Source: Gemmatimonadota bacterium (lineage in GTDB: Bacteria > Gemmatimonadota > Gemmatimonadetes > Palauibacterales > KS3-K002). From it: a stretch of 40,358 nucleotides of DNA. The DNA lies in contig JBDHHX010000002.1 of the NCBI GenBank assembly GCA_039589155.1, positions 1 through 40,358 of the forward strand, read 5' to 3'. Shown in pieces: positions 3,336 to 39,943 of this stretch. A program made the translations under genes and the position numbers. The notes under the pieces are model-generated. The model ran no database searches. It had not been told where the DNA came from and saw only the letters and a list, made by a program, of their open reading frames with translations. Numbering within the stretch: position 1 is the stretch's first letter; each line of letters starts with the position of its first letter.

Positions 3336-5681
3336 ATGGAGTCGACACAGCTGAGAGCTATCCCTTTCGCGGCCGCGCTGGCCATCGCCGTTTGGGTCGC
3401 ACCGGCCTGGCCGCAGGCGCCGGAGACCGCGGCGGACCCGGCCACCTCCGAGCTCACCGTCCCCTACATCATGCAGGGCCCGGAACTCGTAGGTACAGCG
3501 CCGTCACGCATACGCTGGTCGCCGGACGGCCGCTGGCTCTACTTCGTCTGGAAGCGACCGGGCGAGGATCGGCAAAGGGTGTACCGCGTGGAGCGCGGTG
3601 GCGGCGAGCCAGAGCTCGTCGATGACGACGAAGCGCGGCGGATCGAACCTCGTCTCTCAGCCGTGTTCAGCGATGATCGACGCTGGGCCGCCTTCGCCGA
3701 TGGCGGTGACCTCGTTCTCCTCGATGTGAGGGATGGAACCGAGCGAACCCTCGTCTCCGTCCCCGGCCGCCTCTCCTCCATCCGCATCGCACCGGACGGC
3801 AGCGCTGTCTACTTCGTTCGCAGCGACAACCTGTTCCGTGTCGATGCGGTCAGCGGGGCGTTGTCTCAGCTCACCGACATACGGCGCGGTAACGAGCCCA
3901 GGGATCCGAAGGAGGCAGAGGGACAGCGTCAGGTCCTGGAGGACGAACAGGCCGAGCTGCTTCGCGTCTTCCGTGAGGACTCGCTGAGTCGCGCCAATCG
4001 TTGGCCGCCGCCATCCGACCCGGAGGCGGCCGACACGCCGAAGGCGTACTACATCAAGAATGGCGAGCGGTTTAGCGGCTACTGGGTATCGCCGGATGGG
4101 AAGAAGATGGCCTTCCAGCTCTCCAGTGAGGCGGAGGACGCCCGGCTCGCCTGGGTCCCCGACTACGTCACCGAGGATGGCTACACCCAGCAGGCGCCGC
4201 GCAAGCGGACCAACGTGGGCGACGAGCAGGGCAGCTCGAAGCTGGGGATCATGGAGTTGACCACCGGCGCCGTGACCTGGGTCGATCACGGCCAGGAGGA
4301 CCGCGCGCTGCGGATGATGTTCCGCGGCTGGTCCGACGATTCCCGACGCCTGCTTGCCCTTGGGCTCGCCGACGACATGAAGGATCGCTGGCTGTTCGTC
4401 CTCGATCCGGCGACCGGCGAATCGCGCGTTCTCGACCAGCTCCACGACGACGCCTGGATCGGTGGTCCGGGATGGGCCAGCGCCGGATGGATGCCTGACG
4501 GCGACCATGTCTGGTACATATCGGAGGCCACCGGCTTCGCCCACCTCTACACCATGGCCGTCGGTGGCGGCGAGCCTCAGCCGCTCACCACCGGGCCGTG
4601 GGAAGTGCTGAGCGCCTGGCTCTCTCCCGACGAGAAGGAGTGGTACCTGATCACCAGCGAGGCCAGTCCGCACGAGCGCGGATTCTACCGCATGGGTCTG
4701 AACGGCAGCGACCGCGGCCTCGTCACCGGGCACGGTACTCTGCAAGGCGGCAACAATTCTATCTCCGTCTCGCCCGACGGCCGACGCCTCGCCGCCCGCT
4801 TCGGAACGATGAACCATCCGCCGGAGCTCTATCTCCAGGACAACAAGGAAGGCGCGCGGGCGCGGCAGATCACGGAATCGACGACACCCGATTTCCGCGC
4901 CCGCGACTGGATGGTGCCGGAGATCGTTTACTTCCCGGCTCGTGATGGTCTCGACGTGCCCGCGCGGCTCTACCGGCCCGAGATCGCGAACGGCGCCGCC
5001 GTGATCTTCGTACACGGCGCCGGATACCTGCAAAACGTTCATAGCTGGTGGAGCAGCTACTACCGGGAGTACATGTTCCACAACCTGCTGGTCGAGCGCG
5101 GCTTCACCGTGCTCGACATCGACTATCGCGGCTCCGCCGGTTACGGCCGCGACTGGCGGACGGCGATCCACAAGCACATGGGTGGAAAAGACCTCACGGA
5201 CCAGGTCGACGGCGCCGCCTTTCTGATCGATTCGCTGGGCGTCGATGCGGGCCGCATTGGCCTGTACGGCGGCAGCTACGGCGGATTCATCACGCTGATG
5301 GCGATGTTCATGGAGCCCGAGACGTTCGCCGCCGGCGCCGCCCTGCGACCGGTCACCGATTGGGCGTATTACAACCACTGGTACACGTCCCGCATCCTTG
5401 GGCTGCCACAGGACGATGTCGACGCCTACAGGCTGAGCTCGCCCATCTACTACGCCGACGGATTGGAAGGTGCGCTGCTCATCTGCCACGGCATGATCGA
5501 TCAGAACGTTCACTTCCAGGACACGGTGCGTCTTGCTGAGCGATTGATGGAGCTAGGAAAGGAGAATTGGGAGGTCGCGATCTACCCGAAGGAACAACAT
5601 GGCTTCACGCACGACTGGGCGTGGACGGACGAGTACAGACGGATACTGAAGCTATTCGAGGAGAATCTGCTAGAGGACTAG
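3336..5681 (+). CDS. S9 family serine peptidase (prolyl oligopeptidase / dipeptidyl-peptidase-like), secreted
   Basis: A GAGGAGGGG Shine-Dalgarno sequence lies upstream and the protein has an N-terminal signal peptide. The N-terminal half is beta-propeller-like (repeated SPDG/APDG..W motifs). The C-terminal alpha/beta hydrolase has a GGSYGG nucleophile elbow plus HGMIDQNV (Asp) and EQHGF (His). Confidence 0.9.
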   Translation: MESTQLRAIPFAAALAIAVWVAPAWPQAPETAADPATSELTVPYIMQGPELVGTAPSRIRWSPDGRWLYFVWKRPGEDRQRVYRVERGGGEPELVDDDEARRIEPRLSAVFSDDRRWAAFADGGDLVLLDVRDGTERTLVSVPGRLSSIRIAPDGSAVYFVRSDNLFRVDAVSGALSQLTDIRRGNEPRDPKEAEGQRQVLEDEQAELLRVFREDSLSRANRWPPPSDPEAADTPKAYYIKNGERFSGYWVSPDGKKMAFQLSSEAEDARLAWVPDYVTEDGYTQQAPRKRTNVGDEQGSSKLGIMELTTGAVTWVDHGQEDRALRMMFRGWSDDSRRLLALGLADDMKDRWLFVLDPATGESRVLDQLHDDAWIGGPGWASAGWMPDGDHVWYISEATGFAHLYTMAVGGGEPQPLTTGPWEVLSAWLSPDEKEWYLITSEASPHERGFYRMGLNGSDRGLVTGHGTLQGGNNSISVSPDGRRLAARFGTMNHPPELYLQDNKEGARARQITESTTPDFRARDWMVPEIVYFPARDGLDVPARLYRPEIANGAAVIFVHGAGYLQNVHSWWSSYYREYMFHNLLVERGFTVLDIDYRGSAGYGRDWRTAIHKHMGGKDLTDQVDGAAFLIDSLGVDAGRIGLYGGSYGGFITLMAMFMEPETFAAGAALRPVTDWAYYNHWYTSRILGLPQDDVDAYRLSSPIYYADGLEGALLICHGMIDQNVHFQDTVRLAERLMELGKENWEVAIYPKEQHGFTHDWAWTDEYRRILKLFEENLLED

Positions 5682-5783
5682 GACTACGATTGGACTACGA
5701 CTAGGACTGTGACTAGGAGACGACAACGATATCTTCCATTCCTAGTCCTAGTTGTAGTCCTAGTCTTATCGTAGTCGTAGTCC
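5681..5783. repeat. Imperfect palindrome built from GGACTAC/GACTAGG words (intercistronic, S9 peptidase to DinB)
   Basis: 5681-5689 ggactacga pairs with 5775-5783 tcgtagtcc. 5693-5709 ggactacgactaggact pairs with 5744-5760 agtcctagttgtagtcc with one mismatch. The repeated words allow several alternative pairing registers. Confidence 0.85.
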
Positions 5784-5800
5784 TTGAACGAGGTGATTCC

Positions 5801-8995: not shown

Positions 8996-9072
8996 AAGTA
9001 GACGGGGCTTGGGGAATTCGGGTCTCGGACCTCTAATTGTGAGGGTAGTAAGGGGCAACTATCAAGTGGCTT

Positions 9073-9190
9073 GGGAATTCTCGAATAGGATTCAGCGAAT
9101 CGGGGATTCGGGGAATTCGGGAAGGCCGAGCGCCGTCACTTTCGTGATTCCCCAACTCCCCGACTCCCCGAGTCAGCTTCGAGAATTCCC
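9073..9190. repeat. Imperfect palindrome built from TCGGGGA(T/A)T words (divergent intergenic region, M48 / TM2)
   Basis: The outer arms are perfect 13-mers: gggaattctcgaa (9073-9085) and ttcgagaattccc (9178-9190). The inner arms tcggggattcggggaat (9100-9116) and attccccaactccccga (9147-9163) match at 15/17. A further ggggaattcggg copy lies at about 9011-9022. Confidence 0.85.
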
Positions 9191-9348
9191 GGCCCACCTT
9201 GAGCAGGCCGGCTGAGGGGTATAGCTTGAATGGCCCCTCCCATCCTCTGAAACCTCGGACGGCTGGATCCTCGTCATTGATGGTAGGAGCGGGCCGCGCG
9301 CGCGCCCCCGGGACCGGGCGGCCGCGCTAAACCACACGGCGGGCGGGC

Positions 9349-9853: not shown

Positions 9854-10012
9854 TCGGAGTTAAGGATTCCGGATTGTAGAAGGCGATTCGGGGACTCGGG
9901 GATTCGGGGCGGTAGGGAACGGGGGAAGGGCGGCGGCCCTTCCCCCATTCGTTTTTGCCTAAATCCCTCAACCGCCGAACCGCGCTCTGAAATCCGGGAT
10001 CTGTAACTCCGA
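9854..10012. repeat. Long imperfect palindrome (TCGGGGA words) centred on a terminator hairpin, between convergent genes
   Basis: tcggagtta (9854-9862) pairs with taactccga (10004-10012). The symmetry centre near 9933 coincides with the centre of the perfect hairpin at 9921-9946. The arms contain gattcggggactcggggattcgggg and degenerate complements. Confidence 0.8.
9921..9957 (+). terminator. Rho-independent terminator downstream of the TM2 gene
   Basis: gggggaagggc (9921-9931) and gcccttccccc (9936-9946) form a perfect 11-bp GC-rich stem with a GGCG loop. The hairpin is followed by attcGTTTTTg. Confidence 0.8.
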
Positions 10013-11864: not shown

Positions 11865-12755
11865 ATGGCGACGGGAGAGAGCGTGGGCGGAGCGTGGCCC
11901 CAGGAGCGGCACTACGTGGCGGAAGGGCCGGGCGGCCCCCTGTTTGTACGCGAGCTGGGGGAAGGTCCTCCGCTTGTGGTTCTTCACGGCGGACCGGGCG
12001 CCCACCACGACTATCTGCTGCCCCACTTCGCGCCGTTGGCCGAGGAGCGCCGACTCTATTTCTACGACCAGCGCGGCGGCGGCCGCTCCCGGGTGGTGCG
12101 GCCCTCGGCCGTCGGCTGGCGCGACCACGTGGCCGATCTCGAGGCGCTCCGCCGGCTGTGGGGTCTCGATGGCTTGACCCTGCTTGGCTACTCGTGGGGT
12201 GGCCTGCTGGCGCTGCTCTACGCCGTCGAGCGGGCCGCAGATAGCGAGTCGGTGAAGGCGATGGTGCTCGTGGCGCCCGCCGCCGGCTGGGGCGACTACC
12301 ATCGACGGTTCCGAGCGGAATTCGCCCGGCGATCAGTCTCCGACGAGGTGAAACGAATGCGGGCGCAGCTCGAGGCGTCCGGGCTCGCAGATGACGATCC
12401 CGAAGCGTATCGGCAGCGCCGCTTCGACTTGAGCGTGGCCGGGTACTTCCGCGACCCCCGGGATGCCATCGACTCGACACCGTTCGTCGTCCAGGCGCAG
12501 GCCCAGCAGGCAACCTGGCTGAGCCTGAAGGACCACGGCCCTGAGCTCAAGCGCGGCGTCGAAAAGCTCGAGACGCCGGCGCTCATAATTCACGGGCGCC
12601 ACGACCCGATCCCGCTCGAGTGGGCCGAGGAACTGGTCGCCGCCATGCCCGCTGCCCGTCTTGTGGTCCTCGAGAACAGCGGGCACGTTCCGCACGTTGA
12701 GCAAGTGGATCGCACTTTGGCAGAGATACGCCGGTTCCTGAAGGAGCGTACATGA
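11865..12755 (+). CDS. Alpha/beta hydrolase, S33 proline-iminopeptidase-like
   Basis: It has the HGGPG oxyanion motif, a GYSWGG nucleophile elbow and a C-terminal GH (NSGHVPHVE). I preferred the start at ATG 11865 because its distance to HGGPG matches the family. The alternative ATG at 11799 would overlap the divergent M28 start codon within tCATGg. Confidence 0.8.
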   Translation: MATGESVGGAWPQERHYVAEGPGGPLFVRELGEGPPLVVLHGGPGAHHDYLLPHFAPLAEERRLYFYDQRGGGRSRVVRPSAVGWRDHVADLEALRRLWGLDGLTLLGYSWGGLLALLYAVERAADSESVKAMVLVAPAAGWGDYHRRFRAEFARRSVSDEVKRMRAQLEASGLADDDPEAYRQRRFDLSVAGYFRDPRDAIDSTPFVVQAQAQQATWLSLKDHGPELKRGVEKLETPALIIHGRHDPIPLEWAEELVAAMPAARLVVLENSGHVPHVEQVDRTLAEIRRFLKERT

Positions 12756-14488: not shown

Positions 14489-15724
14489 TTGGAACGGAGG
14501 CGACGGTTGTCCCGGCTGACGATCATCTTCCTGACCATCTTCATTGATCTCATCGGGTTCGGGATCGTCCTGCCCCTACTGCCGTTCTACGCCCAGGACC
14601 TCGGGGCGACGCCGTTCGTCATCGGCCTCATCGTCGGTATTCACCCGGGGATGCAGTTCTTGTTCGGTCCGATCTGGGGTCGCCTTTCCGATCGGATCGG
14701 CCGTCGCCCGATCCTGCTGCTCGGGCTCTTGGGATCGGCGGCATCGTACCTGATCTTCGCATTCGCTACCGACCTCTGGTGGCTGTTCGCCTCCCGCATG
14801 ATGGCCGGGATCGCCGGCGCTAACATCCCCGTCGCCCAGGCCTACATCGCCGACTCGACTGACGTGGAGAACCGCACCCGCGGGATGGGTCTTGTGGGTG
14901 CCGCCTTCGGTCTTGGCTTCATCGCCGGGCCGGCCATCGGCGGCACGCTGGTGAAGTTCGGCTACGCTATGCCCGGTTTCTTCGCCGCCGCCCTTTCCTT
15001 CGCCAACGCCGTCGCCGCCTACTTCTACCTCCCGGAATCGCTTAGCGGCGAGGTCCGGGCCCGATCCGTCGCACGAAAGGCCGAGGGACTGCTGGGGAGG
15101 ATGAGAGAGACCGTCAGGTTGGCCCGGCAGCCGACGATCCGGACGCTGATGTGGATCTACGTCATCGCCACCTTCGTCTTCGCCGTCTTCACCACGATCT
15201 TCCCGCTCTGGCTCGGCGTCGAGCTCGCCTACGACGCCCAGCACGCCGGATACCTGATGGCCTACTTGGGATTGCTCATGGCGATCGTGCAGGGGCGCAT
15301 GATCGGACCGCTTGCCCGCTACTTCAGCGAGCGGCGTCTGCTGGTCTTCGGCACGTCGATTCTGGTGGGCGCCTACTTCTTCCTGCCGCTGGCCCCAGGG
15401 CTACTGATGATTTGTATCGTGATGGTGCCCATAGCACTGGGGTCGGGTATCAACTGGCCGACTCTGACCAGCCTGTTGTCGCAGTACACGGATGAGGGCC
15501 GCCAGGGCACGGTGCTCGGTGTCATGCAGTCGTTGTCGGCTCTCGCGCGCTTGCTCGGCGCCGCTTGGGCGGGCTGGGTCTTCGGAACCTTTACGCCAGC
15601 GACGCCGTTCGTTTGGAACTCGATCCTGATGAGTCTTGCGGCGGCCTTCGCCATAGTGTTTATGATTAAGGCGCCAACACGACTGGCAGCCGGTGCGGGA
15701 CAGACCGCTGGCGGCTCGGATTGA
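14489..15724 (+). CDS. MFS transporter (DHA1/tetracycline-efflux-like)
   Basis: It uses a TTG start and has about 12 hydrophobic segments. The MFS motif A is present (GRLSDRIGRRPILL). Confidence 0.85.
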   Translation: MERRRRLSRLTIIFLTIFIDLIGFGIVLPLLPFYAQDLGATPFVIGLIVGIHPGMQFLFGPIWGRLSDRIGRRPILLLGLLGSAASYLIFAFATDLWWLFASRMMAGIAGANIPVAQAYIADSTDVENRTRGMGLVGAAFGLGFIAGPAIGGTLVKFGYAMPGFFAAALSFANAVAAYFYLPESLSGEVRARSVARKAEGLLGRMRETVRLARQPTIRTLMWIYVIATFVFAVFTTIFPLWLGVELAYDAQHAGYLMAYLGLLMAIVQGRMIGPLARYFSERRLLVFGTSILVGAYFFLPLAPGLLMICIVMVPIALGSGINWPTLTSLLSQYTDEGRQGTVLGVMQSLSALARLLGAAWAGWVFGTFTPATPFVWNSILMSLAAAFAIVFMIKAPTRLAAGAGQTAGGSD

Positions 15725-15904
15725 ACATTGAACATTGGACATCCGACATTGAACGTTGAGTCACTGCTGAGCGATGGAACGTTGGACATCGCACATCTGA
15801 CTTTGAACACGAGAGGATGTTCGATGTTCGATGTTCGATGTCCGATCCTCGAAGTTCGGCAGTGATCTCGATGTTCAATGTCGGATGTCCAATGTTCAAT
15901 GTTC
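15723..15904. repeat. 182-bp palindrome built from GAACATT/GGACATC/CGACATT words, with perfect 32-bp terminal arms
   Basis: 15723-15754 gaacattgaacattggacatccgacattgaac is the exact reverse complement of 15873-15904. The inner arms continue imperfectly (gagtcactgc / gcagtgatctc). The centre carries gatgttc x3. The left arm overlaps the MFS TGA stop. Confidence 0.95.
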
Positions 15905-17777: not shown

Positions 17778-17884
17778 CACTTCCACGGCCGTAACTCGTT
17801 GTCTGACAACAACGTGACACAGTTCGTGCGGCCTGGTCTTCTGGGACCGGGCGGGGGCCAGGTGGCCCCTCGCTCCATGTCGTG

Positions 17885-17986
17885 GGTCGGGGCCGGGGGG
17901 ACCGCTCGCTCCGGCCTCCCCGGCGCTCAGCTGCGCGGAGCGCCGGGTCGCTAAAACCAGCTCCGCTCGGCGGTCCCCCCGACCCC
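17885..17986 (+). repeat. GC-rich nested-hairpin repeat, copy A of element E1
   Basis: It is nearly identical to 39566-39667. The outer stem is cggggccggggggaccgc / gcggtccccccgaccccg with one mismatch. The inner 10-bp stem is cccggcgctc / gagcgccggg around a 9-nt loop. Confidence 0.85.
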
Positions 17987-18155
17987 GCCCGCCGGCGGTG
18001 CCAGATGGGCCCCCTGGCCCCCGCCCTACAAGTGGTCCCCGAGGTACGCCGATGTCTATCGGCACGACATCGCACTGCAGAGGGAAAGTGCGGCGCAGGC
18101 CACGGCTCTCCGACCGGTAGGTGAGGCCGCTCAACGTGCCTCCACACGCAGTCCT

Positions 18156-18283
18156 TTGACGCGATAGGGCGGGCGCGGCTGGGGCCGCGAGCGGACTTTG
18201 GAGCGCGGCCGCCCGTCCCCGATGCGTGCCCGTCCGGCGCGATATGAAGCGAGGGCCCCAGCCGCGCCCGCCCGTCCCCGAGA
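18156..18283 (+). repeat. Structured repeat E2, copy A: conserved 67-nt core closed by a copy-specific perfect 20-bp stem
   Basis: The stem 18167-18186 gggcgggcgcggctggggcc is the exact reverse complement of 18254-18273. The core 18187-18253 and the flanks (ttgacgc.atag upstream; g.ccccgaga downstream) are shared with 39684-39811. Confidence 0.85.
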
Positions 18284-18506
18284 GAGACAAGTTGATTCCA
18301 GGCCAGTCCGACGAATCGGATAACGAGTCTTAGTTGCAGTTCTGCCTGCCGCGGCGCATATTTCCCGGTTACCCAACCATCTTGGCCAGGAGGAGATCTC
18401 GTGCGTACGCTCTGTTTCCGATCCGTGTCCCGAACCCGGGGCATGCCAGTTTTCCGCGGCGATCTCAATCCGCTTTCTCGTCCAGGACCGCGACCGAGGT
18501 AGAACG

Positions 18507-21134
18507 ATGGCCGGGCCGGAAGCCTCGTCACGTCCCCGGACGAGCCGAAGGAGAACGGGCCTGCTGCGGCGGCAGGCCGCGCTGCTGCGTCTCAGCACGG
18601 CGATCGGGAGTGCCGAGACGGAGGGCACGATCTGCGGGGCCGTGGTGGACGGTCTGTACGACGAGGCGTTGGGCTACGATTTCGTGGCGCTGTTGTTGGT
18701 GGACGAGGCGACGGGCGAGCGTGTGGTAGTGGCGAGCGTGGGTTGGGCGGACGCTCCGGAAGGCCTGCGAGTGCAGCCGGGCCGGGGGTTGAGCGAGCGG
18801 CCGCTGCTGGACGGTCGCCTTCACTACACGGCGGAGGTGACTCAGGATACCCGCTACCTGCCGACGCGGAACGAGGGCTCGGAAGTCGACGTGCCGATTC
18901 AAATCAACAACGAGCTGGTCGGTGTCCTGGTCGTCGAGAGCAACCGCCCGGATGCGTTCGGGCCGGACGACTTCGAGATCCTGAGGGCGGCCGCCAACCA
19001 GGCTGGGATCGCCATCGGTCGGGCGCGGCTGCTGGCGGCGGAGCGCGAGCGGGCCGACGAGCAAGAGGCGTTGTTGGCCACGCTGGCCGACCTATCGGCG
19101 CAGCTCGAGCTGTCCACGCTGCTGCAGGCGGTGTTGGACCGGGCGGTCGCGCTGCTACGTGTGAGCCACGGTGAACTGGCGATCTACGAACCGGAGCGCG
19201 AGGAGTTGGTGATTGTCGCCAGCCACAACGTCGGCAAGCAGGACACCACTGGCACGCGCCTGGCCGTGGGCGAAGGGGCCATGGGACAGGTGGCGCGGAC
19301 CAGGGAACCGCTGCTCATCCCGAACTACCGGGAGTGGTCGGGCCGCTCGGCGCAGTACGAGCAGGTCGAGTTCCATGCCGTGATGGTCGCCCCCCTGATG
19401 ATGGGCGGCCAGCTGGTGGGCGCCATCGCCGTGATGGACAAGCACGCGGACCGCGAGTTCGGTGGCGTCGACTTGCGGCGGCTGACGATGTTCGCGCCCC
19501 AGGCGGCGGTGGCCATCGAGAACGCGAGACTGTTCGACGCCGAGCGCCGTCGTGCGGAAGAGCAGAAGGCGTTGCTCGACACGATGAAGGATCTGTCCGG
19601 CGAGCTGGAGCTCTCGAAGGTCCTCCACGGCGTGCTGGAGCGTGCGGTATCCTTGCTGAGCGTCACCGGCGGCGAGCTGGCCACGTTCGACGAGTTGGCC
19701 CGCGACCTGGTCATCGTCGCCAGCCACAACATGGGGACGAACGCGGTGGGTCAGCGGATGGCGCTCGGCGAAGGCGCCATGGGCCACGTGGCCGAGAGCC
19801 GCGAGGCGCTGATCATCCCGCGCTACCAGGAATGGCTGGGTCGGTCGGCGAAGTACACCCAGGACACGGTCCAGACGGTGATGGTGGCGCCGCTGATGAT
19901 CGGCAGCCGTTTGGTGGGCGCGATCGCCGCGGTGCACTCCGACCCGTCACGGGAGTTCGGGTCGGAGGAATTACGGTTGCTGCAGCTCTTCGCGCCGCAG
20001 GCCGCCATCGCCATCGAGAACGCGCGCCTCTACACGGCGGCCCGCCAGCAGAAGCAGTACTTCGAGGAGCTGGTGCGCAACAGCCCGGTGGCGATCGTCA
20101 CGCTCGACACGGATCACAATGCCGTCTCCTGCAACCCGGCCTTCGAGAAACTCTACGGCTACAAGCAGGAGGAAGTGGTCGGCCGCAACCTTGACGACCT
20201 GATCACGACCGAGGCCACGAGGCTGGAGGCCGTCACCTACACGGAGATGGCGCTCGAGCACCGTACGGTCAACGTGATCAGCCAGCGGCGTCGGAAGGAC
20301 GGGAGCTTCGTCGATGTCGAGGTGCTCGGTGTACCCGTCGTCGTTGACGGGCAACGACTCGGTCTGATGGCGCTCTATCACGACATCACCGAGCTGCTGG
20401 AGGCGCGTCGCGATGCCGAGGCGGCCAACAGCGCAAAGAGCCAGTTCCTCGCCAGCATGAGCCACGAGCTGCGCACTCCGCTCAACGCGATCCTCGGCTA
20501 TAGCGAGATGCTCGTGGAAGACGCGGAAGACAAGGGCCAGCCGAAGTTCGTGCCCGATCTGCAGAAAATCCACTCTGCCGGCAGCCACCTGCTGACGCTG
20601 ATCAACGACGTCCTTGACCTGTCGAAGATCGAGGCCGGCAAGATGGAGCTTACGCCGGAAACGTTCGACGTGAAGGCGACCATCGACGAAGTCGCGACCA
20701 CGGTCCGGCCGCTCGTCGAGCGGAACGCGAACGAACTGGTCGTCCGCCGTGACGGCGAGTTGGGCGACATGTACTCCGACCTGACCCGTACCCGGCAGGT
20801 GCTGCTCAACCTGCTGTCGAACGCCGCAAAGTTCACCGAGAACGGGACCATCACGCTGACGGCGCAACGCACGCAAGGCAACGACGGTGGCGAGGTGGTC
20901 GTGTTCAGCGTCAGCGACACGGGGATCGGCATGACGCCGGAGCAAGCGGCGAAACTGTTCGAGCCCTTTTCTCAGGCGGAAGCGACGACCGCCAACAAGT
21001 ATGGAGGTACCGGGCTCGGCCTGGCGATATCGCGCAGCTTCTGCCGGATGATGGGCGGCGAGGTCAGCCTTGAAAGCGAGGCCGGCGTTGGCTCCACCTT
21101 CACCGTTCGGTTGCCGACGGCAGTACCGAACTAG
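18507..21134 (+). CDS. Soluble sensor histidine kinase: GAF(A)-GAF(B)x2-PAS-HisKA-HATPase_c
   Basis: A GAGGT Shine-Dalgarno sequence lies 6 nt upstream. It has three GAF-like modules, a PAS domain ([20 protein letters not shown]), an H-box ([18 protein letters not shown]), an N-box ([12 protein letters not shown]), G1 (DTGIGM) and G2 ([11 protein letters not shown]). No hydrophobic helices are present. Confidence 0.9.
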
Positions 21135-27094
<5,960 letters not shown>

Positions 27095-30644: not shown

Positions 30645-31712
30645 TTATTCTCCTGATCGCCGAATCGATTCCAGCACCCGCCTGTTCGCGGCGGGAAAGG
30701 CGTAGCTCTCCAGTTGGTCCGCCCTCACCCATGCGTATTCCTGGCAGCCGAGCGGTTTCGGCGTGCCGGTTCGGTAGCGGCAGCGGAAGGCGTGCAGCGT
30801 GATCTCGAAGTGGCTGTAGGCGTGATCGATCGCCGCGATCTTGTCGCCGGTCTCCACCTCGATGTCCAGCTCTTCCGCTACCTCACGGACCACCGCCGCT
30901 TCCGGCGCCTCGCCCGGCTCGACCTTGCCGCCGGGAAACTCCCACAGGCCGCCCAGCAATCCATCGGGCATCCGCCTGGCGATCAAGATCTCATCGTCGC
31001 GCCAGACGACACCGACGGCGATGTCATAGTGCGGCCGCCGCTTCGCCGGCCGGCGGCCGGGTCGCTCGGCAACCGTACCGCGGGCGCGCGCCTTGCACAG
31101 GCTCGCCAGCGGGCAATCACTGCAGCGCGGCGAACGCGGCGTGCAGACCCCGGCGCCGAGATCCATAAGCGCCTGATTCACATCGCCAGGTCGTTCCGCG
31201 ACCAGCGGTCCGCCGTGCTCGAGCAGCGGAGCCGGTGTCGGGTCCGGCAGATCGTGAAGCCGGCTCAGCACGCGGCGAATGTTGCCGTCCAACGCCAGCG
31301 CCGACTGGCCGAACGCGATACTGCCGATGGCCGCCGCTATGTACGGTCCCACGCCGGGTAGCGCACGCAGTGCCTCGGCATCGGCTGGCAGCCGACCTCC
31401 GTGCTTCTCGACCACGATGGCCGCCGCTTTATGGAGGTTGCGGGCGCGCGCGTAGTAGCCGAGCCCCTCCCATGACTTCAACACCTGGTCCAGGCTGGCC
31501 GTGGCAAGCGATCGTACGTCTGGGAATCGTTCCAGGAATCTTATGTAGTAGGGGATGGCGGTGTCGACCTGGGTTTGGACCAGCATGACCTCGGCCACCC
31601 AGATGCAGTAAGGGTCAGCGGTGTGCCGCCACGGCAAGTCGCGCCGCTCGGCATCGTACCATCCGAGCAGCCGGTCGCGAACCTCATTGGCTCGCGCCCC
31701 CTCCAAAGTCAC
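30645..31712 (-). CDS. mutY: A/G-specific adenine DNA glycosylase MutY
   Basis: It has RDLPWR..DPY.IWV.EVMLVQTQV, an HhH-GPD motif (LPGVGPYIAAAI), 4Fe-4S cysteines (CTPRSPRCSDCPLASLC) and a C-terminal NUDIX-like domain (WEFPGGKVE). I chose the GTG start at 31712. The ORF extension to 31865 only translates the intergenic palindrome and the dapF 3' end. Confidence 0.85.
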   Translation of the reverse strand: MTLEGARANEVRDRLLGWYDAERRDLPWRHTADPYCIWVAEVMLVQTQVDTAIPYYIRFLERFPDVRSLATASLDQVLKSWEGLGYYARARNLHKAAAIVVEKHGGRLPADAEALRALPGVGPYIAAAIGSIAFGQSALALDGNIRRVLSRLHDLPDPTPAPLLEHGGPLVAERPGDVNQALMDLGAGVCTPRSPRCSDCPLASLCKARARGTVAERPGRRPAKRRPHYDIAVGVVWRDDEILIARRMPDGLLGGLWEFPGGKVEPGEAPEAAVVREVAEELDIEVETGDKIAAIDHAYSHFEITLHAFRCRYRTGTPKPLGCQEYAWVRADQLESYAFPAANRRVLESIRRSGE

Positions 31713-31785
31713 CTCTTCATCCTCATTTTCATCGTCATCGCATCGCTTTGCCGATGACGATGAGGATGACGATGAGAATGAGGAG
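31713..31785. repeat. Imperfect palindrome built from CATCGT/CATCCT words (intercistronic, dapF to mutY)
   Basis: tcatcgtcatcg (31729-31740) pairs with cgatgacgatga (31752-31763). cctcatt (31721-31727) pairs with aatgagg (31777-31783). Alternative registers are possible. Confidence 0.8.
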
Positions 31786-34339: not shown

Positions 34340-34573
34340 GTGGCCGCCCGCCTTGCCGTCAGGGTACAGCCGCGAGCGTCGCGTACCGAGGTCGTCGGGG
34401 CTCACGGCGACGCTATCAAGATCCGTCTCGCAGCGCCGCCGGTCGACGGTGCGGCGAACGAGGAACTGATCGCTTTCCTGTCTAAGAAGCTGGGCGTCTC
34501 AAAGTCGGCGGTTCGGATTGTGAAGGGTGACCAGGGGCGTGACAAGCTCGTCGAGATCTCGGCGGAGATGTGA
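34340..34573 (+). CDS. yggU: DUF167 / YggU family protein
   Basis: The GTG start lies 4 nt after the VWA stop. The family pattern is present (VRVQPRASR..IKIRLAAPPVDGAANEELIAFLSKKLGVSKSAVRIVKG..GRDK). Confidence 0.8.
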   Translation: MAARLAVRVQPRASRTEVVGAHGDAIKIRLAAPPVDGAANEELIAFLSKKLGVSKSAVRIVKGDQGRDKLVEISAEM

Positions 34574-35280
34574 CGCCCCGTGCCGATCTCGAACTTGTGG
34601 GCCGACCGGCTGATGCGTGCCACCATGGCTTCGCGCTGTCCGCCCGACAGGTTGGACACGATTCGGCACTTCTCTATGTCGAGGATGTAGGCTTGCGGCT
34701 CGCCAGCGGGATCCGCGATCAGGATGTTCTTGAGATTGAGGTCGGGGTGCAGCACGCCGGTTCGGTGCAACGCGCCGATCAGGCGACCTGCGGCGGCCAG
34801 GGCGGAAGCGCGCTGCAGTGGATCGAGGTCGGGTTCGGCGAACAGGCAGTCCGCCAGATCGCGAGCGTTCCCAACCTCTTCCCGGGCCATTTCGCCGTGG
34901 TACGAAAAGCGAGAGGAATAGACAACGGCGGCGACCACGTTGGGCGTCAGGATTCCGAGCTGTTGGAGCTTTACCGATAGTTGTAGCTCGTTGAGCGGCC
35001 GCGGCTTGCCGCTCCTGAAGAAGCGCTTGCCGGTTATCGGCGCCAGCAAACCGCCATGGCTCAATTGGCGCACCACCCAACGCGGCGAGCCGGGGCCAGG
35101 AATGATGTACAGCTTTTGCCGACCCTGGATCGTCTCCGCATCGGGATGTCGCCTGGCGAAGTTGTACAGCGTACCCGCTGACTCGATCGCGTCTTGCACG
35201 AAAGCGACGGCGTCTTCACGGGCGACGACTCGGGCATCGCCGACTTGCGCGCTGCGGTATCCCTCCGGAACGGTCGTCAC
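34402..35280 (-). CDS. Lipopolysaccharide kinase family protein (Kdo kinase KdkA / WaaP-like)
   Basis: It has a catalytic loop (LHRTGVLHPDLNLKNILI) followed by ILDIEK. A GTGA overlap couples it to the upstream glycosyltransferase. The last ~57 codons run antisense through yggU and may be a non-functional tail. Confidence 0.7.
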   Translation of the reverse strand: MTTVPEGYRSAQVGDARVVAREDAVAFVQDAIESAGTLYNFARRHPDAETIQGRQKLYIIPGPGSPRWVVRQLSHGGLLAPITGKRFFRSGKPRPLNELQLSVKLQQLGILTPNVVAAVVYSSRFSYHGEMAREEVGNARDLADCLFAEPDLDPLQRASALAAAGRLIGALHRTGVLHPDLNLKNILIADPAGEPQAYILDIEKCRIVSNLSGGQREAMVARISRSAHKFEIGTGRHISAEISTSLSRPWSPFTIRTADFETPSFLDRKAISSSFAAPSTGGAARRILIASP

Positions 35281-36188
35281 TGTGAACGCTCCGCTCCCGT
35301 CCGCCAGGCGCCCGAATAACGCAGGGAGGATGTGAGAGTCCCGCCATCCAGGGTGGCAAGCTCCTGCTCACCATCTTTGCTCCACAACGTAAGGTGCAGA
35401 ATCCCGATGTCCCGATGCGGAAGGTAGGGCTCTACGAGTCGTTTTCGTGACGCGTCGTACTTGGGCGTGGCGCGGTGGGCCACCCAGTTGCAGGTGGCGG
35501 GTAGCAGCTCGACCGGCAGCCCCAGGCCGTGCGTGATGTATTCGAGAGTCAACTGGTCGAGGCCGCCGCGACGCGATCGCTGCAGCGCGAGCCCGTACTG
35601 TTCGCGCCAGACACTCCAGTGCGGCGCATCCGCCGCCAGCGCGAAGACACCGCCGTTCAGAGTCGGCGTGTCGATCAGCCGGTCGGCGACGTCCTTGCCG
35701 TAGATGTCCCTGTAGCGGCGCCAGCCGCCGGACGATATACGGTAGGGGATGCCCAGCACTCGCTCCACCTTGAGCTTCGTGTCGAAGGCGGGGTAGGCGC
35801 GATCCACCTCGGGCACCACGGCCAGCGCGCCCGTCGTCGCCGCCCGCACGAGAAGCTCGACGGCCGACCAGTCCTGCACCCAAGCGTCGGCGTCGATGTG
35901 AACGTAGACGTCATAGCCGGGGAAGTGATCCGGAAGGAAAGGCCGGCTGCGTAAGCCCTTCTTGTGTTCGGGCTCTTCGATCTCACCGGGCCGCCGAATA
36001 TCCCAGTCGGGCTTCACGATCGAAGCCGCGAACGGCGCCAGCCAACTCTTGTCTTCGTCAGAGAGCCCGACGTCGAGGATGCACAGGTCTACGCCCTCCG
36101 ACTCCGGCTTGTCGCGGATCGACTGTACCAGCTCCTGCAGGTACTCGAAGAAGCCGGAATCGGCGCTGGAAACGATGCATGTTCTCAT
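35277..36188 (-). CDS. Nucleotide-diphospho-sugar glycosyltransferase, GT8-like (LPS core hexosyltransferase-like)
   Basis: The pattern resembles GT8: CIVSSADSGFFEYLQELVQSI, LCILDVGLSDEDKSWL and a DxD-type motif (YVHIDADAWV). Confidence 0.55.
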   Translation of the reverse strand: MRTCIVSSADSGFFEYLQELVQSIRDKPESEGVDLCILDVGLSDEDKSWLAPFAASIVKPDWDIRRPGEIEEPEHKKGLRSRPFLPDHFPGYDVYVHIDADAWVQDWSAVELLVRAATTGALAVVPEVDRAYPAFDTKLKVERVLGIPYRISSGGWRRYRDIYGKDVADRLIDTPTLNGGVFALAADAPHWSVWREQYGLALQRSRRGGLDQLTLEYITHGLGLPVELLPATCNWVAHRATPKYDASRKRLVEPYLPHRDIGILHLTLWSKDGEQELATLDGGTLTSSLRYSGAWRTGAERSQ

Positions 36189-36275
36189 AGCTGGTCAGCC
36201 GGAAGCTAGGCCGACCTGTGGTGAGCGGCAATCTTCTTGCCGTTCTTCGATGCCCCGATCTACGTTAGTGGGGCC

Positions 36276-37250
36276 ATGCACTTTCGAAAGATCCTCGGGA
36301 TCAAGCTGCGCGAGATCGGAGATGCGGTGATTTGGACATCAGCGCTACAGTCTCTTCGTAGCGCGTTTCCGGATGCCAGTATCGATGTGCTCGTCAGAGA
36401 CAGCGTTGAGCCTGTTCTCGATCGCCAGCCATGGATCGATCGAGTTCACACCGTATCCCGCGAGACCTTTCCACTGGCGCGGCGGTTGCTTGCACTCAGG
36501 GCAGAGAAGTACGATCTGGCGCTGGGTTTCAGCGCCACCAACACGCTCTGTCGGCTCATTCCGCTACTCGGCGCTCCCCATCGCGTTTTGTACCACGTGA
36601 AGCGGAGCGGCGACCCGCGCTTCTCGACTTTCCCGCTGCCGGAGCTGCGGCAGAATGCCAACGCGATCGATCACGATCACCGTGTTGTACGCGCCCTTGG
36701 CGTCGAGGGAGAGCCGCCGCCGCCGACTCTCGTGCTGAGTGACGGCGAGCGAGTGAGCGCGCGCGACCGCTTGCTCTCTTTCTTTCCCGACCTCGGGTCG
36801 AGAGACATTGCACTCGTCGGGCTGCTTCCGGGCGCCAGGGCCGATGACAAAATTTACCCGAAGGATCTGTGGCTGCGCGTGCTCGACGGTATCGTCGAAG
36901 CGCGGCCCCGGGTCCCGGTGGCGGTACTCGTCGATCGGGACCTCTCGACTCTCTGGAACATGCGCCAGCTTTGCGAAGAGAGAAACGTCCCTCTCTTCGA
37001 TGACCTTGGCCTCCGCGAGCTCATGGAGATGTTGAGCTGGATGAGCGTCGTCGTCTGCAACGATTCCGGGCCCAAGCACATCGCGGTCGCTTTGGGCGCC
37101 CGGTCCGTGACGCTGTACGGCCCCACGAAAGTCGAGGAATGGCACCCCTACGACCTGACGCTTCACCCTGTCTTCAGGGAAACTGACATGCGCCAGATCG
37201 ATCCGGAGCAGGTGTGGCGAGTGACGAGCGAGCTGCTGGGCGGCATATGA
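36276..37250 (+). CDS. Glycosyltransferase family 9 (LPS heptosyltransferase-like)
   Basis: It has an N-terminal ILGIKLREIGDAVIWTSALQSLRSAFP motif and a C-terminal VVCNDSGPKHIAVALGARSVTLYGPT motif. I chose the start at ATG 36276; the ORF is open from 36237. Confidence 0.8.
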   Translation: MHFRKILGIKLREIGDAVIWTSALQSLRSAFPDASIDVLVRDSVEPVLDRQPWIDRVHTVSRETFPLARRLLALRAEKYDLALGFSATNTLCRLIPLLGAPHRVLYHVKRSGDPRFSTFPLPELRQNANAIDHDHRVVRALGVEGEPPPPTLVLSDGERVSARDRLLSFFPDLGSRDIALVGLLPGARADDKIYPKDLWLRVLDGIVEARPRVPVAVLVDRDLSTLWNMRQLCEERNVPLFDDLGLRELMEMLSWMSVVVCNDSGPKHIAVALGARSVTLYGPTKVEEWHPYDLTLHPVFRETDMRQIDPEQVWRVTSELLGGI

Positions 37251-38497
37251 CTGCACGAGTGCGTGACAGACGCTTATTGGTCTTTGCCATCGCAGCGCTC
37301 GTGATCGGAACGGCGCTACGACTGTCCTATCCCGCCGACATTGAATACAAGAGCGACGAGCGCTGGATGTTCGAGATGACGCAGCGGGTTGCCGCCGGTG
37401 AGGCATGGCCGGCCGTCGGCATGATCTCGTCCGAGAGAGTGGCGAACCCCGGGTTGAGCGTCTGGCTGTTCATCGGTTTGCAGAAACTCTCCGGTGCGGA
37501 GACGCCGGTGGGATTGGCGCGTGGCGTTCAACTGGTCAACATCCTTGCCCTCGCTCTTCTCTTTCTGTTCGTCTGGTGGGCAGTACCGGAAGGCGAGAGG
37601 CGGGGTTGGACGTGGGGTGCGTCGCTCGCCTGCGTCAGTCCCATTTCCGTGATCTTTCATCGCAAGATCTGGGCGCAATCACTCCTGCCGGTCTTCGGGA
37701 TGGTCTTCTTGATCGGCTGGTGGTACCGAGGTAGACATCGGTCCGCCGCCTTTGTCTGGGGGCTTGCCGGGGCGTTGCTCGGCCAGATCCACATGGCCGG
37801 CTTCTTCCTGACGGCCGCGGTTCTGGCGTGGACCGTGCTGTTCGATTCTAACAGGAAGAAGATCTCGTGGCCGTCATGGGTGCTGGGATCTGCAGCCGGC
37901 GCGGTCACGCTGATCCCGTGGCTGATCCAGGCGAGCGCCAGGTTGGGCGCGGCGCGGCCGGCCTACGATGTGTCATCCTGGTATCTCTTCAAGTGGTGGA
38001 ACTACTGGGTCAGCAACGCCGCCGGCCTCGTTCTGCAATCGCCGCTACGTGGCGCCTTCGCGTCGTTTCTCGAGTATCCCATCATCGGCGGCCGGCCGAC
38101 TTATTTGGTGGCGGCGTTGCACTTGATCCTTGTGGCGTGCGCTCTCTACGTGCCTTGGCTTCTCATCGGCGGCATCGCGAATAAGCGTGGAAGCTGGTTG
38201 ACGCTGTTCATTGGGAAGTCGTCCGACTCGTCGCTTCTGATGAGCTCCTACCTGTGGGGATGTGGTTTCTTGATGATGGTCGTGGGCGTCATAGCCGATC
38301 GCCACTACCTTCTTGTGGCTTTCCCGCTCGTCTACGTCTGGTTCGCTCGTGTCCTGGCCAGCGATTCACGGTGGGGAACGCGGGTATACGGCATCGCGTG
38401 GTCGGCCCAACTGCTCGTGACAGCACTGTTTCTCTATTACGTCCACGTCAACGGGGGCGTCCTGCTCGGCACCTATCGGGCCGCCTTCCCCCAGTGA
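37247..38497 (+). CDS. Polytopic membrane protein, GT-C-fold glycosyltransferase-like (ArnT/PMT-like) or polymerase/ligase-like
   Basis: An ATGA overlap couples it to the GT9 stop. It has at least 10 hydrophobic segments. An acidic motif (YKSDERWMFE) follows the first helix, as in GT-C enzymes. Confidence 0.5.
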   Translation: MTARVRDRRLLVFAIAALVIGTALRLSYPADIEYKSDERWMFEMTQRVAAGEAWPAVGMISSERVANPGLSVWLFIGLQKLSGAETPVGLARGVQLVNILALALLFLFVWWAVPEGERRGWTWGASLACVSPISVIFHRKIWAQSLLPVFGMVFLIGWWYRGRHRSAAFVWGLAGALLGQIHMAGFFLTAAVLAWTVLFDSNRKKISWPSWVLGSAAGAVTLIPWLIQASARLGAARPAYDVSSWYLFKWWNYWVSNAAGLVLQSPLRGAFASFLEYPIIGGRPTYLVAALHLILVACALYVPWLLIGGIANKRGSWLTLFIGKSSDSSLLMSSYLWGCGFLMMVVGVIADRHYLLVAFPLVYVWFARVLASDSRWGTRVYGIAWSAQLLVTALFLYYVHVNGGVLLGTYRAAFPQ

Positions 38498-39541
38498 GTG
38501 CTATCCGTGACGACTGATAGAATCATCGTCAGCAGGACCGATGCGATCGGCGACGTGGTGTTGACGCTGCCGATGCTCGGGAAGCTGCGGCAGCGCTATC
38601 CGTCATCGGAAATTCTGTTTCTCGGTCGCTCGTACACGCGGCCCATCGTCGAGTGCTGCGAGCACGTTGACGGGTTCTTGGTCTGGGATGAGGTGGCGGA
38701 GTCCGACAGGCGGACGCGCTCGGACTTCTTGAGAGCCCGCAACGCCGACGTCATCGTCCACGTCTATCCCCGTCACGCCATAGCCGCTGCAGCCCGGCGG
38801 GCGCGCATACCCAACCGCATCGGAACGTCTCATCGCTTCTACCATCTTTGGACCTGCAACCGGCTCGTCGGCTTGTCGCGGAGAAAGTCTCCGCTTCACG
38901 AGTCGCAGCTGAACGTGAAGTTGCTCGAGCCGCTTGGCTTGGAGACGATCCCCGGGTTGGACGAGATCCCGGCGCTCTATGGTCTCACGAGAGTCCCGAC
39001 GTTGCGGCCCGAGCTCGCCGCGCTGCTCGCCAATGACAGGCTGAACCTGATCGTCCATCCGATGACCGGCGGCAGCTCGAAGCGTTGGAGCTTGGAGAAC
39101 TACGATCGCTTGATACGGGCGTTGCCGCTGGAGAAGTGCGCGATCTTTGTGACCGGCACCGAGGCCGATGGAGAAGCTATCGCCGATGCGTTGCCGCTCG
39201 AGAAGTCGAACGTCACGTCACTGGTCGGCCGACTCGCGTTGTCGGACCTGGTCAGCTTCATCGGCTCCGCGGATGCCCTCGTCTGTGGCTCGACGGGGCC
39301 GCTCCACGTTGCCGCCGCCCTGGGCAAGTGCGCCATCGGGTTCTACATGCCGATCGGGATCGCGCATCCGCGCCGCTATGGCCCGGTGGGCGCAGATGTG
39401 CACCCGCTTCTCTACGATCCAGACTGCCACAGGTGCCGTGACGGTCTCGACTGTGGTTGCCTGCAGAGCATACCTACCTCCGCAGTCCTCGAGATACTGG
39501 AACCGCTCGCCGACTCAATCACCAGCTCACGGCGCGGCTAG
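38498..39541 (+). CDS. Glycosyltransferase family 9 (LPS heptosyltransferase-like), second copy
   Basis: The GTG directly abuts the upstream TGA. It has IIVSRTDAIGDVVLTLPMLGKLRQRYP and VCGSTGPLHVAAALGKCAIGFY motifs. Confidence 0.8.
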   Translation: MLSVTTDRIIVSRTDAIGDVVLTLPMLGKLRQRYPSSEILFLGRSYTRPIVECCEHVDGFLVWDEVAESDRRTRSDFLRARNADVIVHVYPRHAIAAAARRARIPNRIGTSHRFYHLWTCNRLVGLSRRKSPLHESQLNVKLLEPLGLETIPGLDEIPALYGLTRVPTLRPELAALLANDRLNLIVHPMTGGSSKRWSLENYDRLIRALPLEKCAIFVTGTEADGEAIADALPLEKSNVTSLVGRLALSDLVSFIGSADALVCGSTGPLHVAAALGKCAIGFYMPIGIAHPRRYGPVGADVHPLLYDPDCHRCRDGLDCGCLQSIPTSAVLEILEPLADSITSSRRG

Positions 39542-39565
39542 CTAGCGCTCCACCCCGTCGTCGTT

Positions 39566-39667
39566 GGTCGGGGTCGGGGGGACCGCTCGCTCCGGCCTCC
39601 CCGGCGCTCAACTTCGTAGAGCGCCGGGTCGCTAAAACCAGCTCCGCTCGGCGGTCCCCCCGACCCC
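39566..39667 (+). repeat. GC-rich nested-hairpin repeat, copy B of element E1
   Basis: It is the same sequence as 17885-17986 apart from the 9-nt apical loop (aacttcgta vs agctgcgcg) and a few stem-edge positions. The outer stem is fully paired in this copy. Confidence 0.85.
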
Positions 39668-39683
39668 TCCCTGTCGATGTGTG

Positions 39684-39811
39684 TTGACGCTATAGGTCGG
39701 GCACAACAGGGCCCTTGAGCGGACTTTGGAGCGCGGCTGCCCGTCCCCGCTGCCTGCCTGTCCCGCGCGATATGAAGCGAAGGGCCCTGTTGTGCCCGAC
39801 CGGCCCCGAGA
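39684..39811 (+). repeat. Structured repeat E2, copy B
   Basis: The stem 39695-39714 ggtcgggcacaacagggccc is the exact reverse complement of 39782-39801. The 67-nt core 39715-39781 is nearly identical to 18187-18253. An extra partial core end (gatatgaagcgagggcccc) recurs at 39810-39828. Confidence 0.85.
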
Positions 39812-39943
39812 TATGAAGCGAGGGCCCCACTCGTTACCGACCGGCCCCGCGGCGAGGCCCCCAATCGCACCCGACCGAAACCGCGCCATGGTCACGTTCG
39901 AAGTTGCGCGCGCGGGCTAGCCTTACGACAATACGACGCCACT

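Follow-up and report, generated by a model that had tools for sequence, protein, structure and literature searches.

Hairpin-forming intergenic repeats of the REP/REPIN, BIME and MITE kinds are known mainly from Proteobacteria, and in the literature searched we found no description of such repeats in Gemmatimonadota. REPINs are REP doublets that form hairpins and are mobilized by the RAYT tyrosine transposases (PMC3116915). The REP units themselves have stems of 5-13 bp and loops of 2-20 nt, and occur as head-to-head dimers with conserved spacers of 20-100 bp (PMC3733652). We report a small, previously undescribed family of intergenic hairpin repeats of about 128 nt, which comprises two kinds of element, E2 and E1, and belongs to one uncultured lineage of Gemmatimonadota. 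E2 looks more like a selfish or duplicative DNA element resembling REPINs and MITEs than like a stand-alone RNA gene.

The stretch of DNA analyzed here, henceforth the window, is one entire metagenome contig of 40,358 nt from a Gemmatimonadota bacterium, with 65% G+C. The first of its two E2 copies (copy A) lies inside a 730-nt gap that is non-coding as judged by third-codon-position G+C, bounded on its left by a small HXXEE-like gene that ends at 17777 and on its right by a GAF/PAS histidine kinase gene, one of three paralogs and the first in order, whose start is at 18507. The second (copy B) lies between a heptosyltransferase gene, which ends at 39541, and an amino-acid permease gene, which starts at 39944. 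The approximately 30 ORFs of the window are housekeeping genes; none encodes a transposase, reverse transcriptase, Cas or Y1/HUH protein, in line with the preliminary description of this DNA, which had noted no gene of the first three kinds nearby. The same locus is present in two independent assemblies of the same strain, the NCBI MAG GCA_039591015.1 (L020) and one from the JGI sample 3300041078 (L027), and because it is reproduced in both the E2 locus is not an assembly artefact.

The E2 hairpin and its inverted relative E1

The two E2 copies of the window have the following parts (CM, covariance model):

18156-18283, + strand: E2 copy A, complete element, from the sequence and the CM (132.5 bits on + versus 25 on -)
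18156-18166, + strand: 5' tail of copy A, ttgacgcgata
18167-18186, + strand: 5' arm of copy A, gggcgggcgcggctggggcc
18187-18253, + strand: core or loop of copy A, 67 nt
18254-18273, + strand: 3' arm of copy A, ggccccagccgcgcccgccc, pairing perfectly over 20 bp with the 5' arm
18274-18283, + strand: 3' tail of copy A
39684-39811, + strand: E2 copy B, complete element, from the sequence and the CM (138.2 bits on + versus 37.6 on -)
39684-39694, + strand: 5' tail of copy B
39695-39716, + strand: 5' arm of copy B, forming a perfect 22-bp stem with 39780-39801
39717-39779, + strand: core or loop of copy B
39780-39801, + strand: 3' arm of copy B
39802-39811, + strand: 3' tail of copy B

The perfect 20-bp reverse-complement stems attributed to both copies in the preliminary description can be read directly from the DNA, and in copy B the pairing extends beyond the perfect 20-bp frame (39695-39714 / 39782-39801) to 22 bp. 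Its estimate of about eight differences between the two stems is correct for the 5' arms over the 22 aligned stem columns, although only six of these fall within the 20-bp frame; all differences between the arms of A and B are compensated by a complementary change in the 3' arm. Both stems enclose 67 nt, and the near-identity claimed for these loops holds, 59 of 64 aligned columns (92%) being the same, as against only 64-67% identity between the arms. The conserved outer flanks, ttgacgc.atag on the 5' side and g.ccccgaga on the 3' side, were likewise recovered in both copies. Three observations show that the repeat is not a product of chance. A 21-nt block of the core occurs exactly twice in the window versus 0 expected from 100 shuffles. 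The folding z-scores of the E2 copies are -3.9 and -6.2 for RNA, and -3.9 and -6.9 for DNA. When perfect hairpins with stems of 12 bp or more were counted, every GG-type hairpin of the window had a loop of 63-68 nt.

A model built from E2 only also matches, on the opposite strand only, a second kind of element, E1, for which the plus strand gives about 11 bits or nothing. The E1 copies and the incomplete modules that accompany both kinds of element are as follows:

17875-18001, - strand: E1 copy A (E1A), from the E2-only CM (23.4 bits, E about 0.001-0.003), alignment and fold
39556-39682, - strand: E1 copy B (E1B), from the CM (40.5 bits on - versus 11.3 on +)
17849-17883, - strand: outer E2-type 3' arm (17849-17869) with a fragment of the 3' end of the core (17870-17883, reverse complement of acgacatggagcga), an inverted repeat
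18007-18026, - strand: outer E2-type 5' arm, reverse complement GGGCGGGGGCCAGGGGGCCC, pairing with 17849-17869
39810-39842, + strand: truncated module after E2 copy B, consisting of the last 13 nt of the core, gatatgaagcgag (39810-39822), and an unpaired 3'-arm-like unit, ggccccactcgttaccgacc (39823-39842)
39857-39876, + strand: second unpaired 3'-arm-like unit, gcccccaatcgcacccgacc, close to the commonest arm of the family, ..GCGATTGGGG..

The stem of E1A pairs 17884-17905 with 17970-17991 and bears on its sense strand a loop of 64 nt, GAGCGGA...GGAGCGAG. E1B, whose stem pairs 39570-39586 with 39651-39667, is 94% identical to E1A and lies head-to-head with E2 copy B, 23 nt from the 5' arm of the latter. 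E1A is nested within the outer pair of E2-type arms, and a single long hairpin is predicted for 17845-18030 as a whole (z = -6.9). E1 and E2 are alike in stem style, loop length and loop ends, and differ in the interior of the loop; E1 is a diverged relative of E2 on the opposite strand.

Further copies, stem covariation and the probable active strand

A scan of 185,579 representative genomes with the pattern CGGACTTTGGAG-N30-60-ATATGAAGCG recovered three true copies of E2, all of them in a single Gemmatimonadota MAG, BHB10-26_Bin_292, and a covariance model made from the five copies then at hand added two more from the same MAG (L003a and L003b). E2 is thus represented by seven copies, two in the window and five in the loci L003 and L004 of BHB10-26_Bin_292. 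The only other matches among the representative genomes were in Qipengyuania and Chitinophaga and were taken as chance without inspection. In the JGI metagenome contigs, a collection that does not include the window's own contig, the pattern gave one match, a chance occurrence in AT-rich coding DNA; three scans of viral contigs gave chance matches that the model did not support, or nothing; and a BLAST search of plasmids gave no match. Approximately 173 kb of loci from relatives (L017-L019, L021-L028) contain no E2 besides the known copy A in L027. The sample as a whole comprises the seven E2 copies, two complete E1 copies and a partial E1 (in L026), and comes from two MAGs of one study. The MAG of the window and Bin_292 may belong to the same species, which is possible because the genome of the window is not among the representatives scanned. 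The count of three exact-pattern matches in the Bin_292 MAG has to be read with the facts that the pattern catches five of the seven known copies, exact-match scans missing diverged members, that MAGs are incomplete and that contigs break near repeats: in one case a contig breaks off within an E1 copy, and in another a contig begins 84 nt past E2 copy A.

Across these copies the element is intergenic and consists of a short 5' tail, a stem of 16-22 bp, a loop and a short 3' tail. The foot of the stem (GGTCGGGC/GCCCGACC; GGTCGG/CCGACC) and its top (GGGGCC/GGCCCC) are conserved, and 6-8 bp in the middle are variable. The arms are all variants of approximately GGTCGGGCGCGATTGGGGYC and descend from one common sequence; between copies they are 55-100% identical, with the changes compensated. 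The loop is asymmetric, about 63-68 nt long, and has fixed ends, GAGCGGA...GAAGCGAG, starting in E2 with GAGCGGACTTTGGAGCGC and ending with GCGCGATATGAAGCGAG. The five copies that fit the pattern show no differences in the blocks GAGCGGACTTTGGAGCGC and GCGCGATATGAAGCG, and L003a and L003b, which were found by the model, depart from them at only 1-3 positions. The conserved stretches of about 15-18 nt that run across all seven copies fall in the loop and not in the arms. The loop also contains direct repeats, GCCCGT...GCCCG with a spacing of 18 nt and AGCG three times, and the core both opens and closes with AGCG. A 5' tail of the form ..CG[AT]TAG precedes four of the seven copies, and 3' tails are common within subfamilies.

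In a model-based alignment of the seven copies, 13 of the 21 pairs of the outer helix have changed on both sides, and 95.9% of the cells are paired. None of 500 shuffles reached the observed values, a statistic that is inflated by the relatedness of the copies, and when the partner strand was slid by 1-3 columns pairing dropped to 31-47%. The preliminary description had concluded from the compensated changes of two copies that there is selection for pairing within a strand, of RNA or DNA, and had held that unpaired stems in further copies, or copies always sitting at the ends of a larger mobile element, would speak against this; the stems of the five additional copies stay paired, E2 copies are not the ends of a larger element, and the conclusion is strengthened accordingly. 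The inner helices and the loop show no convincing covariation among the seven copies, and the conservation of the loop is therefore one of sequence and not of helices.

In all four adjacent pairs (those at copy A and copy B of the window, and those in L003 and L004) the order is (-,+) with the 5' ends facing. Modules that join an unpaired 3' arm to the 13-16 nt at the end of the core are seen after copy B of the window (twice) and after L003b, and also beside E1A, and an extra 5' arm is present ahead of L004m; the second unpaired unit after copy B was compared with the arms of L004m and L003b. The histories of stem and loop are discordant: copies A and B of the window have similar loops and different arms, whereas L003a and L004p, which come from different loci, have an identical 22-bp stem and 3' tail with loops that are 81% identical. 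Patchy gene conversion or uneven constraint could account for this discordance.

The discordance is also what would be expected if, as the preliminary description had offered for consideration, a small element had inserted into the loops of pre-existing hairpins. The mobile unit would then be only the core of about 63-67 nt, precisely inserted at the apex of REP-like hairpins, and the diversity of the stems would reflect different targets rather than compensatory evolution. IS1397 and ISKpn1, which insert into the loops of palindromic units, provide an analogy, and the occurrence of the same tetranucleotide, AGCG, at both ends of the core, as well as the existence of arm-like units without a full core, are in its favor. 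However, 53 kb of E2-bearing sequence contain no short-loop hairpin with E2-type arms, all loops being of 63-68 nt, and each unpaired 3'-side arm is accompanied by 13-16 nt from the end of the core, as would suit a truncated element and not a naive target. Beyond the stem, the conserved tails on both sides belong to the repeat and move along with it, and E1, despite its different loop interior, has the same loop ends and style of stem. Furthermore, the paired arms of L003b have changed from TT to CC on one side and from AA to GG on the other, while the adjoining unpaired extra arm keeps the L004m-type sequence, and such compensated changes fit co-evolution in situ. We accordingly regard insertion of the core as quite unlikely; the lack of core-less hairpins, the arms with core pieces, the tails and the compensation in L003b point to the whole hairpin as the evolving unit.

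The additional copies are not all perfectly paired, and their imperfections bear on the strand. Three of them (L003b, L003c and L004m) have a tandem G.A/A.G mismatch near the stem foot, GGGAGG opposite CCGACC, as has E1B, and a G.T pair is present in one (L003b) as well as in E1A. These two kinds account for every stem position that is not Watson-Crick. They are tolerable only on the sense strand, their complements being C.T or C.A, and this restriction suggests that the hairpin forms in single-stranded RNA or ssDNA of one particular strand. We favor ssDNA as the active molecule, inferring this from the orientation of the elements, the lack of room for divergent promoters and the absence of promoter- and terminator-like signals. 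E1 in the window is antisense to both flanking genes and lies 23 nt from E2 copy B, and L003a and L003b lie between convergent genes. No sigma-70-like promoter was predicted at either locus and no intrinsic terminator within the elements. A lone terminator-like match (18558-18578) falls within the kinase gene.

That E1 and E2 might instead be genes or modules of a structured non-coding RNA, either an sRNA family or a 3' or 5' element of mRNAs, is a reading we consider unlikely. In such a case the closing stem would be kept by selection at the RNA level, with the function carried by the 67-nt loop, which would bind a protein or another RNA. The strong covariation of the closing helix, the RNA-friendly nature of the sense-strand non-canonical pairs (tandem sheared G.A, G.U) and the near-invariance of GAGCGGACTTTGGAGCGC and GCGCGATATGAAGCG over seven copies would all agree with this, and the apparently low copy number is easier to reconcile with a family of sRNAs than with REPs. 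Against it, the loop does not covary, the elements contain no promoter- or terminator-like signal, the placement of E1 leaves no room for divergent promoters, and RNA genes would not be expected to occur as truncated, tandem or nested modules. Nor is there any known RNA family to which they could be assigned: the window has 0 matches at the gathering thresholds of Rfam release 15, in keeping with the preliminary description, in which no family was recognized, and permissive scans of both loci (E<=10) returned nothing relevant, the best sub-threshold matches, on E1 or the flanks, having E = 0.086, far below the cut-offs. A riboswitch or 5'-UTR element was rejected on account of placement: copies are flanked by convergent genes or run antisense to their neighbors, and the orthologous genes of relatives have none upstream.

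Distribution in relatives and a possible mode of spread

At the kinase locus three relatives (L021/L022, L023 and L025) are syntenic with the window, having the genes for an MFS protein, a 491-aa protein, the HXXEE protein and the kinases, the last of which are 82-87% identical to those of the window. All three keep an operator-like palindrome, GTTGTCnGACAAC, and a promoter-like TTGC..-N17-CATATT, but E1 and E2 are absent from the intergenic region, which has a different filler in each; we therefore take E1 and E2 to be lineage-specific insertions or acquisitions. Absence of the elements from regions that retain the flanking regulatory motifs also speaks against an RNA gene. At the heptosyltransferase locus the relative L026, with 86% nucleotide identity, has E1 directly following the stop codon, an arrangement that the window shows too. 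The L026 contig breaks off within E1, and the 37 loop nucleotides that are visible are 100% identical to those of the window, versus 86% for the adjacent gene, which would also be consistent with an RNA function; its visible arm carries the GGGGAACCGCG change. More distant relatives (73% and 69% amino-acid identity) have a real gene at the position of E1. Elements can thus persist and stay conserved once they have been acquired. No excision or empty-site pair was found at the level of strains, the elements being present in 3/3 same-strain assemblies.

The preliminary description had overlooked four points: the kinship of E2 with the inverted and diverged E1, the occurrence of the elements as head-to-head pairs with truncated and nested modules, their absence from the orthologous intergenic regions of close relatives and their inconsistent orientation to genes. 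Taken together, these points make a DNA repeat that duplicates or moves more likely than an RNA gene. Our preferred reading is that the family is a new low-copy, non-autonomous, strand-specific hairpin repeat that works like REPINs, BIMEs or MITEs without qualifying as any one of them, and we put the chances of its being right at about even. The observations on which a mobile repeat is based are the multiple copies, the orthologous sites that lack them, the modules, the head-to-head pairs, the covarying stems and the sense-only non-canonical pairs. Counting against it are the lack of a candidate mobilizing enzyme or transposase among the approximately 38 ORFs of the window, L003 and L004, all of which are housekeeping genes, the lack of a target-site duplication and the apparently low copy number, as well as the higher conservation of loops than of arms, the identity of the L026 loop and the lack of a strain-level empty site.

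In this preferred reading, the non-autonomous DNA repeat is copied or moved around the genome, and its active form would be a strand-specific single-stranded hairpin, most likely of ssDNA. By analogy with the handling of REPINs by RAYTs and of the ends of IS200/IS605 elements by Y1/HUH transposases, the hairpin would be handled in trans by an unlinked enzyme, which might recognize the conserved foot and top of the stem and the ends of the loop. The stems would be kept complementary either by selection on the stability of the hairpin or by hairpin-templated correction between the arms.

The conservation of the L026 loop, along with the higher identity of loops than of arms, suggests a function at the level of sequence and long vertical persistence rather than simple parasitism. 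This raises the possibility, to which we assign a low probability, that E1 and E2 are domesticated, vertically inherited, strand-specific hairpins, which either act as RNA or have a dedicated host protein that reads the stem foot and the invariant ends of the loop. If this were true, they might serve, for example, as single-strand recombination, replication or regulatory sites, with the head-to-head pair as the functional unit, and the conservation of the loop beyond that of coding DNA, the low copy number and the pairing of the stem on one strand would be explained.

A very unlikely variant on service to the host is a DNA site acting as a platform for a nucleoid, topoisomerase or recombination protein, comparable to BIME-1/RIP elements, the linker of which binds IHF, and to the binding of gyrase by BIMEs. 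Selection would then act on double-stranded sequence together with the potential to form a cruciform, and the site would have been multiplied by occasional duplication only. The direct repeats of the loop (GCCCGT...GCCCG and the three AGCG) resemble protein sites more than helices, the loop is conserved beyond the flanking coding DNA, and the copies are few and intergenic. However, strand-asymmetric G.A and G.T mismatches are not expected of a double-stranded site, truncated and nested copies exist, and close relatives with the same genes lack the elements; a regular-expression search for the IHF consensus, WATCARNNNNTTR, gave 0 matches on both strands of all nine elements.

Comparison with known hairpin elements

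The elements resemble REPINs in being intergenic, about 110-130 nt long and composed of two inverted arms of about 20 nt placed about 70 nt apart, with no transposase inside. A long hairpin is predicted in ssDNA or RNA in both cases and compensatory changes are common (in the E2 stems of 16-22 bp both partners have changed at 13 of the 21 pairs), and both occur as singlets, truncated remnants and ordered tandem clusters. They differ in that the ends of REPINs are invariant (16-mers) and the spacer is less conserved, whereas in E2 the ends of the loop are invariant and the middle of the stem varies. The REPIN spacer pairs with itself, while the E2 loop is asymmetric and does not covary. There is no GTAG/CGTC tag at both ends of E2; ATAG or TTAG stands before the 5' arm in four of the seven copies, with no complementary tag on the 3' side. 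REPINs number tens to hundreds per genome, and E2 apparently only single digits, as counted with a pattern that catches five of seven. REPIN systems have a cognate, single-copy RAYT (Y1 transposase) gene with the repeats on its flanks; among the approximately 38 ORFs near the copies of E2 there is no RAYT.

With BIME-1/RIP the family shares inverted arms around a conserved oriented center, tandem arm-plus-linker modules and the predominance of head-to-head dimers, but REP units are small stem-loops whereas the arms of E2 do not fold on themselves, and there is no sequence similarity. MITEs of the Correia/NEMIS, ERIC and RUP types, which have structured transcripts, are similarly intergenic, 100-150 bp long and non-coding, form a long hairpin from terminal inverted repeats and vary in presence between related genomes. 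Their terminal repeats are, however, conserved between copies, unlike the arms of E2, and compensated arm changes are not expected in MITEs because the transposase reads the terminal repeats as duplex DNA. MITEs also have target-site duplications and a parent IS, neither of which is seen for E2 in the loci examined: in a search with offsets of 0-20 nt and k = 3-9, no offset was common to more than two of the nine elements, and no consistent boundary emerged.

The subterminal hairpins of IS200/IS605 elements and of their miniature derivatives, the PATEs, are likewise recognized as strand-specific ssDNA hairpins; they tolerate non-canonical pairs on the active strand alone, and there is no duplication of the target. 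In contrast to E2, they use two different hairpins, at the left and right ends, in the same orientation, with a fixed target of 4-5 nt; E2 is a single large hairpin with no flanking tetranucleotide common to all copies, TAG preceding the stem in four of seven. The attC sites of integrons, imperfect palindromes about 60-140 nt long, are similar in that the structure is conserved and not the stem sequence, and in that they act as a single-stranded hairpin of one strand. They have R''/R' boxes (RYYYAAC/GTTRRRY), a variable center and a place in cassette arrays next to an integrase, whereas E2 has GGTCGG/CCGACC feet and a conserved center, and is scattered among housekeeping genes with no integrase nearby. 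CRISPR, retron and attC were ruled out by architecture and by missing partner genes.

The repeats break metagenome assemblies and draw spurious ORF calls, and hence their recognition improves the annotation of MAGs. Two such calls lie over elements, P0121 and a 246-aa gene called in L027, and P0121, from the same strain, is the sole match when six-frame translations of five copies are compared by profile search against 5.8 billion proteins. The family also offers a handle for finding the protein that reads the hairpin. Given the few copies, its significance is probably moderate. The E2 family is a new variant inside the broad class of hairpin-forming intergenic repeats, one in which the usual pattern is inverted, the asymmetric loop being conserved and the stem free to covary; together with the sense-only non-canonical pairs, this makes it a clear instance in nature of selection acting on a hairpin in single-stranded form.

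Sequence around the histidine-kinase cluster

At the kinase locus the block formed by E2, the hairpin repeat of about 128 nt, and its diverged minus-strand relative E1 is positioned between an operator-like palindrome and a promoter-like motif, both of which lie upstream of a histidine-kinase cluster:

17793-17820, operator-like palindrome AACTCGTTGTCTGACAACAACGTGACAC
18334-18362, promoter-like motif TTGCAG-N17-CATATT
18507-27094, a row of three multi-GAF/PAS histidine kinase paralogues (875, 1274 and 712 aa)

The three paralogous kinase genes explain the large direct-repeat families D1-D6; a response regulator and a receiver-Ser/Thr kinase fusion come after them. The cluster is kept in relatives, and both upstream motifs are likewise kept in the syntenic loci L021, L023 and L025, with no conservation of the sequence between them. 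The L023 locus contains N runs at 9862-9879 and 12648-12728 (masked sequence or scaffold gaps), one of which falls within the compared intergenic region, so that a short element might be hidden there.

Synteny and assembly breaks at E1 and E2

Comparison of window positions 34402-39541 with the related loci L017, L018 and L019 reveals a rearranged gene order around the genes for an LPS-core glycosyltransferase, Kdo kinase, DapF and MutY. One rearrangement breakpoint, between the heptosyltransferase and an amino-acid permease, is the site of the E1B/E2B pair, and synteny with L018 and L019 ends at the site of the E1A/E2A pair. Assembly breaks also fall within or just beside E1 and E2: the L024 contig starts 84 nt past E2A (its position 1 corresponds to window 18367), and the L026 contig ends inside E1 (at the equivalent of window 39610). 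Furthermore, gene callers have placed spurious ORFs over the repeats, namely a 255-aa "protein" (P0121) in L020, another assembly of the same strain, a 23-aa stub, and a 246-aa ORF in L027. L027 is a further assembly of this strain, and the position there is:

L027 120-860, spurious 246-aa ORF over the repeats

A second class of intergenic palindromes

Besides E1 and E2, this genome and its relatives contain long intergenic palindromes of a second class. One arm consists of short tandem-like units (GAACATT, GGGGATTC, GGACTAC, GTAGACA and others) and the other of their complement; the unit sequence differs at every locus, and the same intergenic spots in relatives are occupied by different palindromes of this class:

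5680-5784, I6
9066-9197, I2
15723-15904, I3
31701-31785, I10, which may lie in coding sequence
L021 9650-9750, palindrome in a relative
L023 9455-9585, palindrome in a relative

At the loci compared in L021 and L023 the entire I3 element is missing, and at its site the 491-aa gene lies 28 and 0 nt, respectively, from the MFS gene. I3 is also polymorphic between the window and L020 (GCA_039591015.1), assemblies that are otherwise 99.9% identical: 47 nt of the palindrome (window 15742-15788), bounded by the direct repeat TTGGACAT, are missing from L020 (reverse strand, about position 3690).
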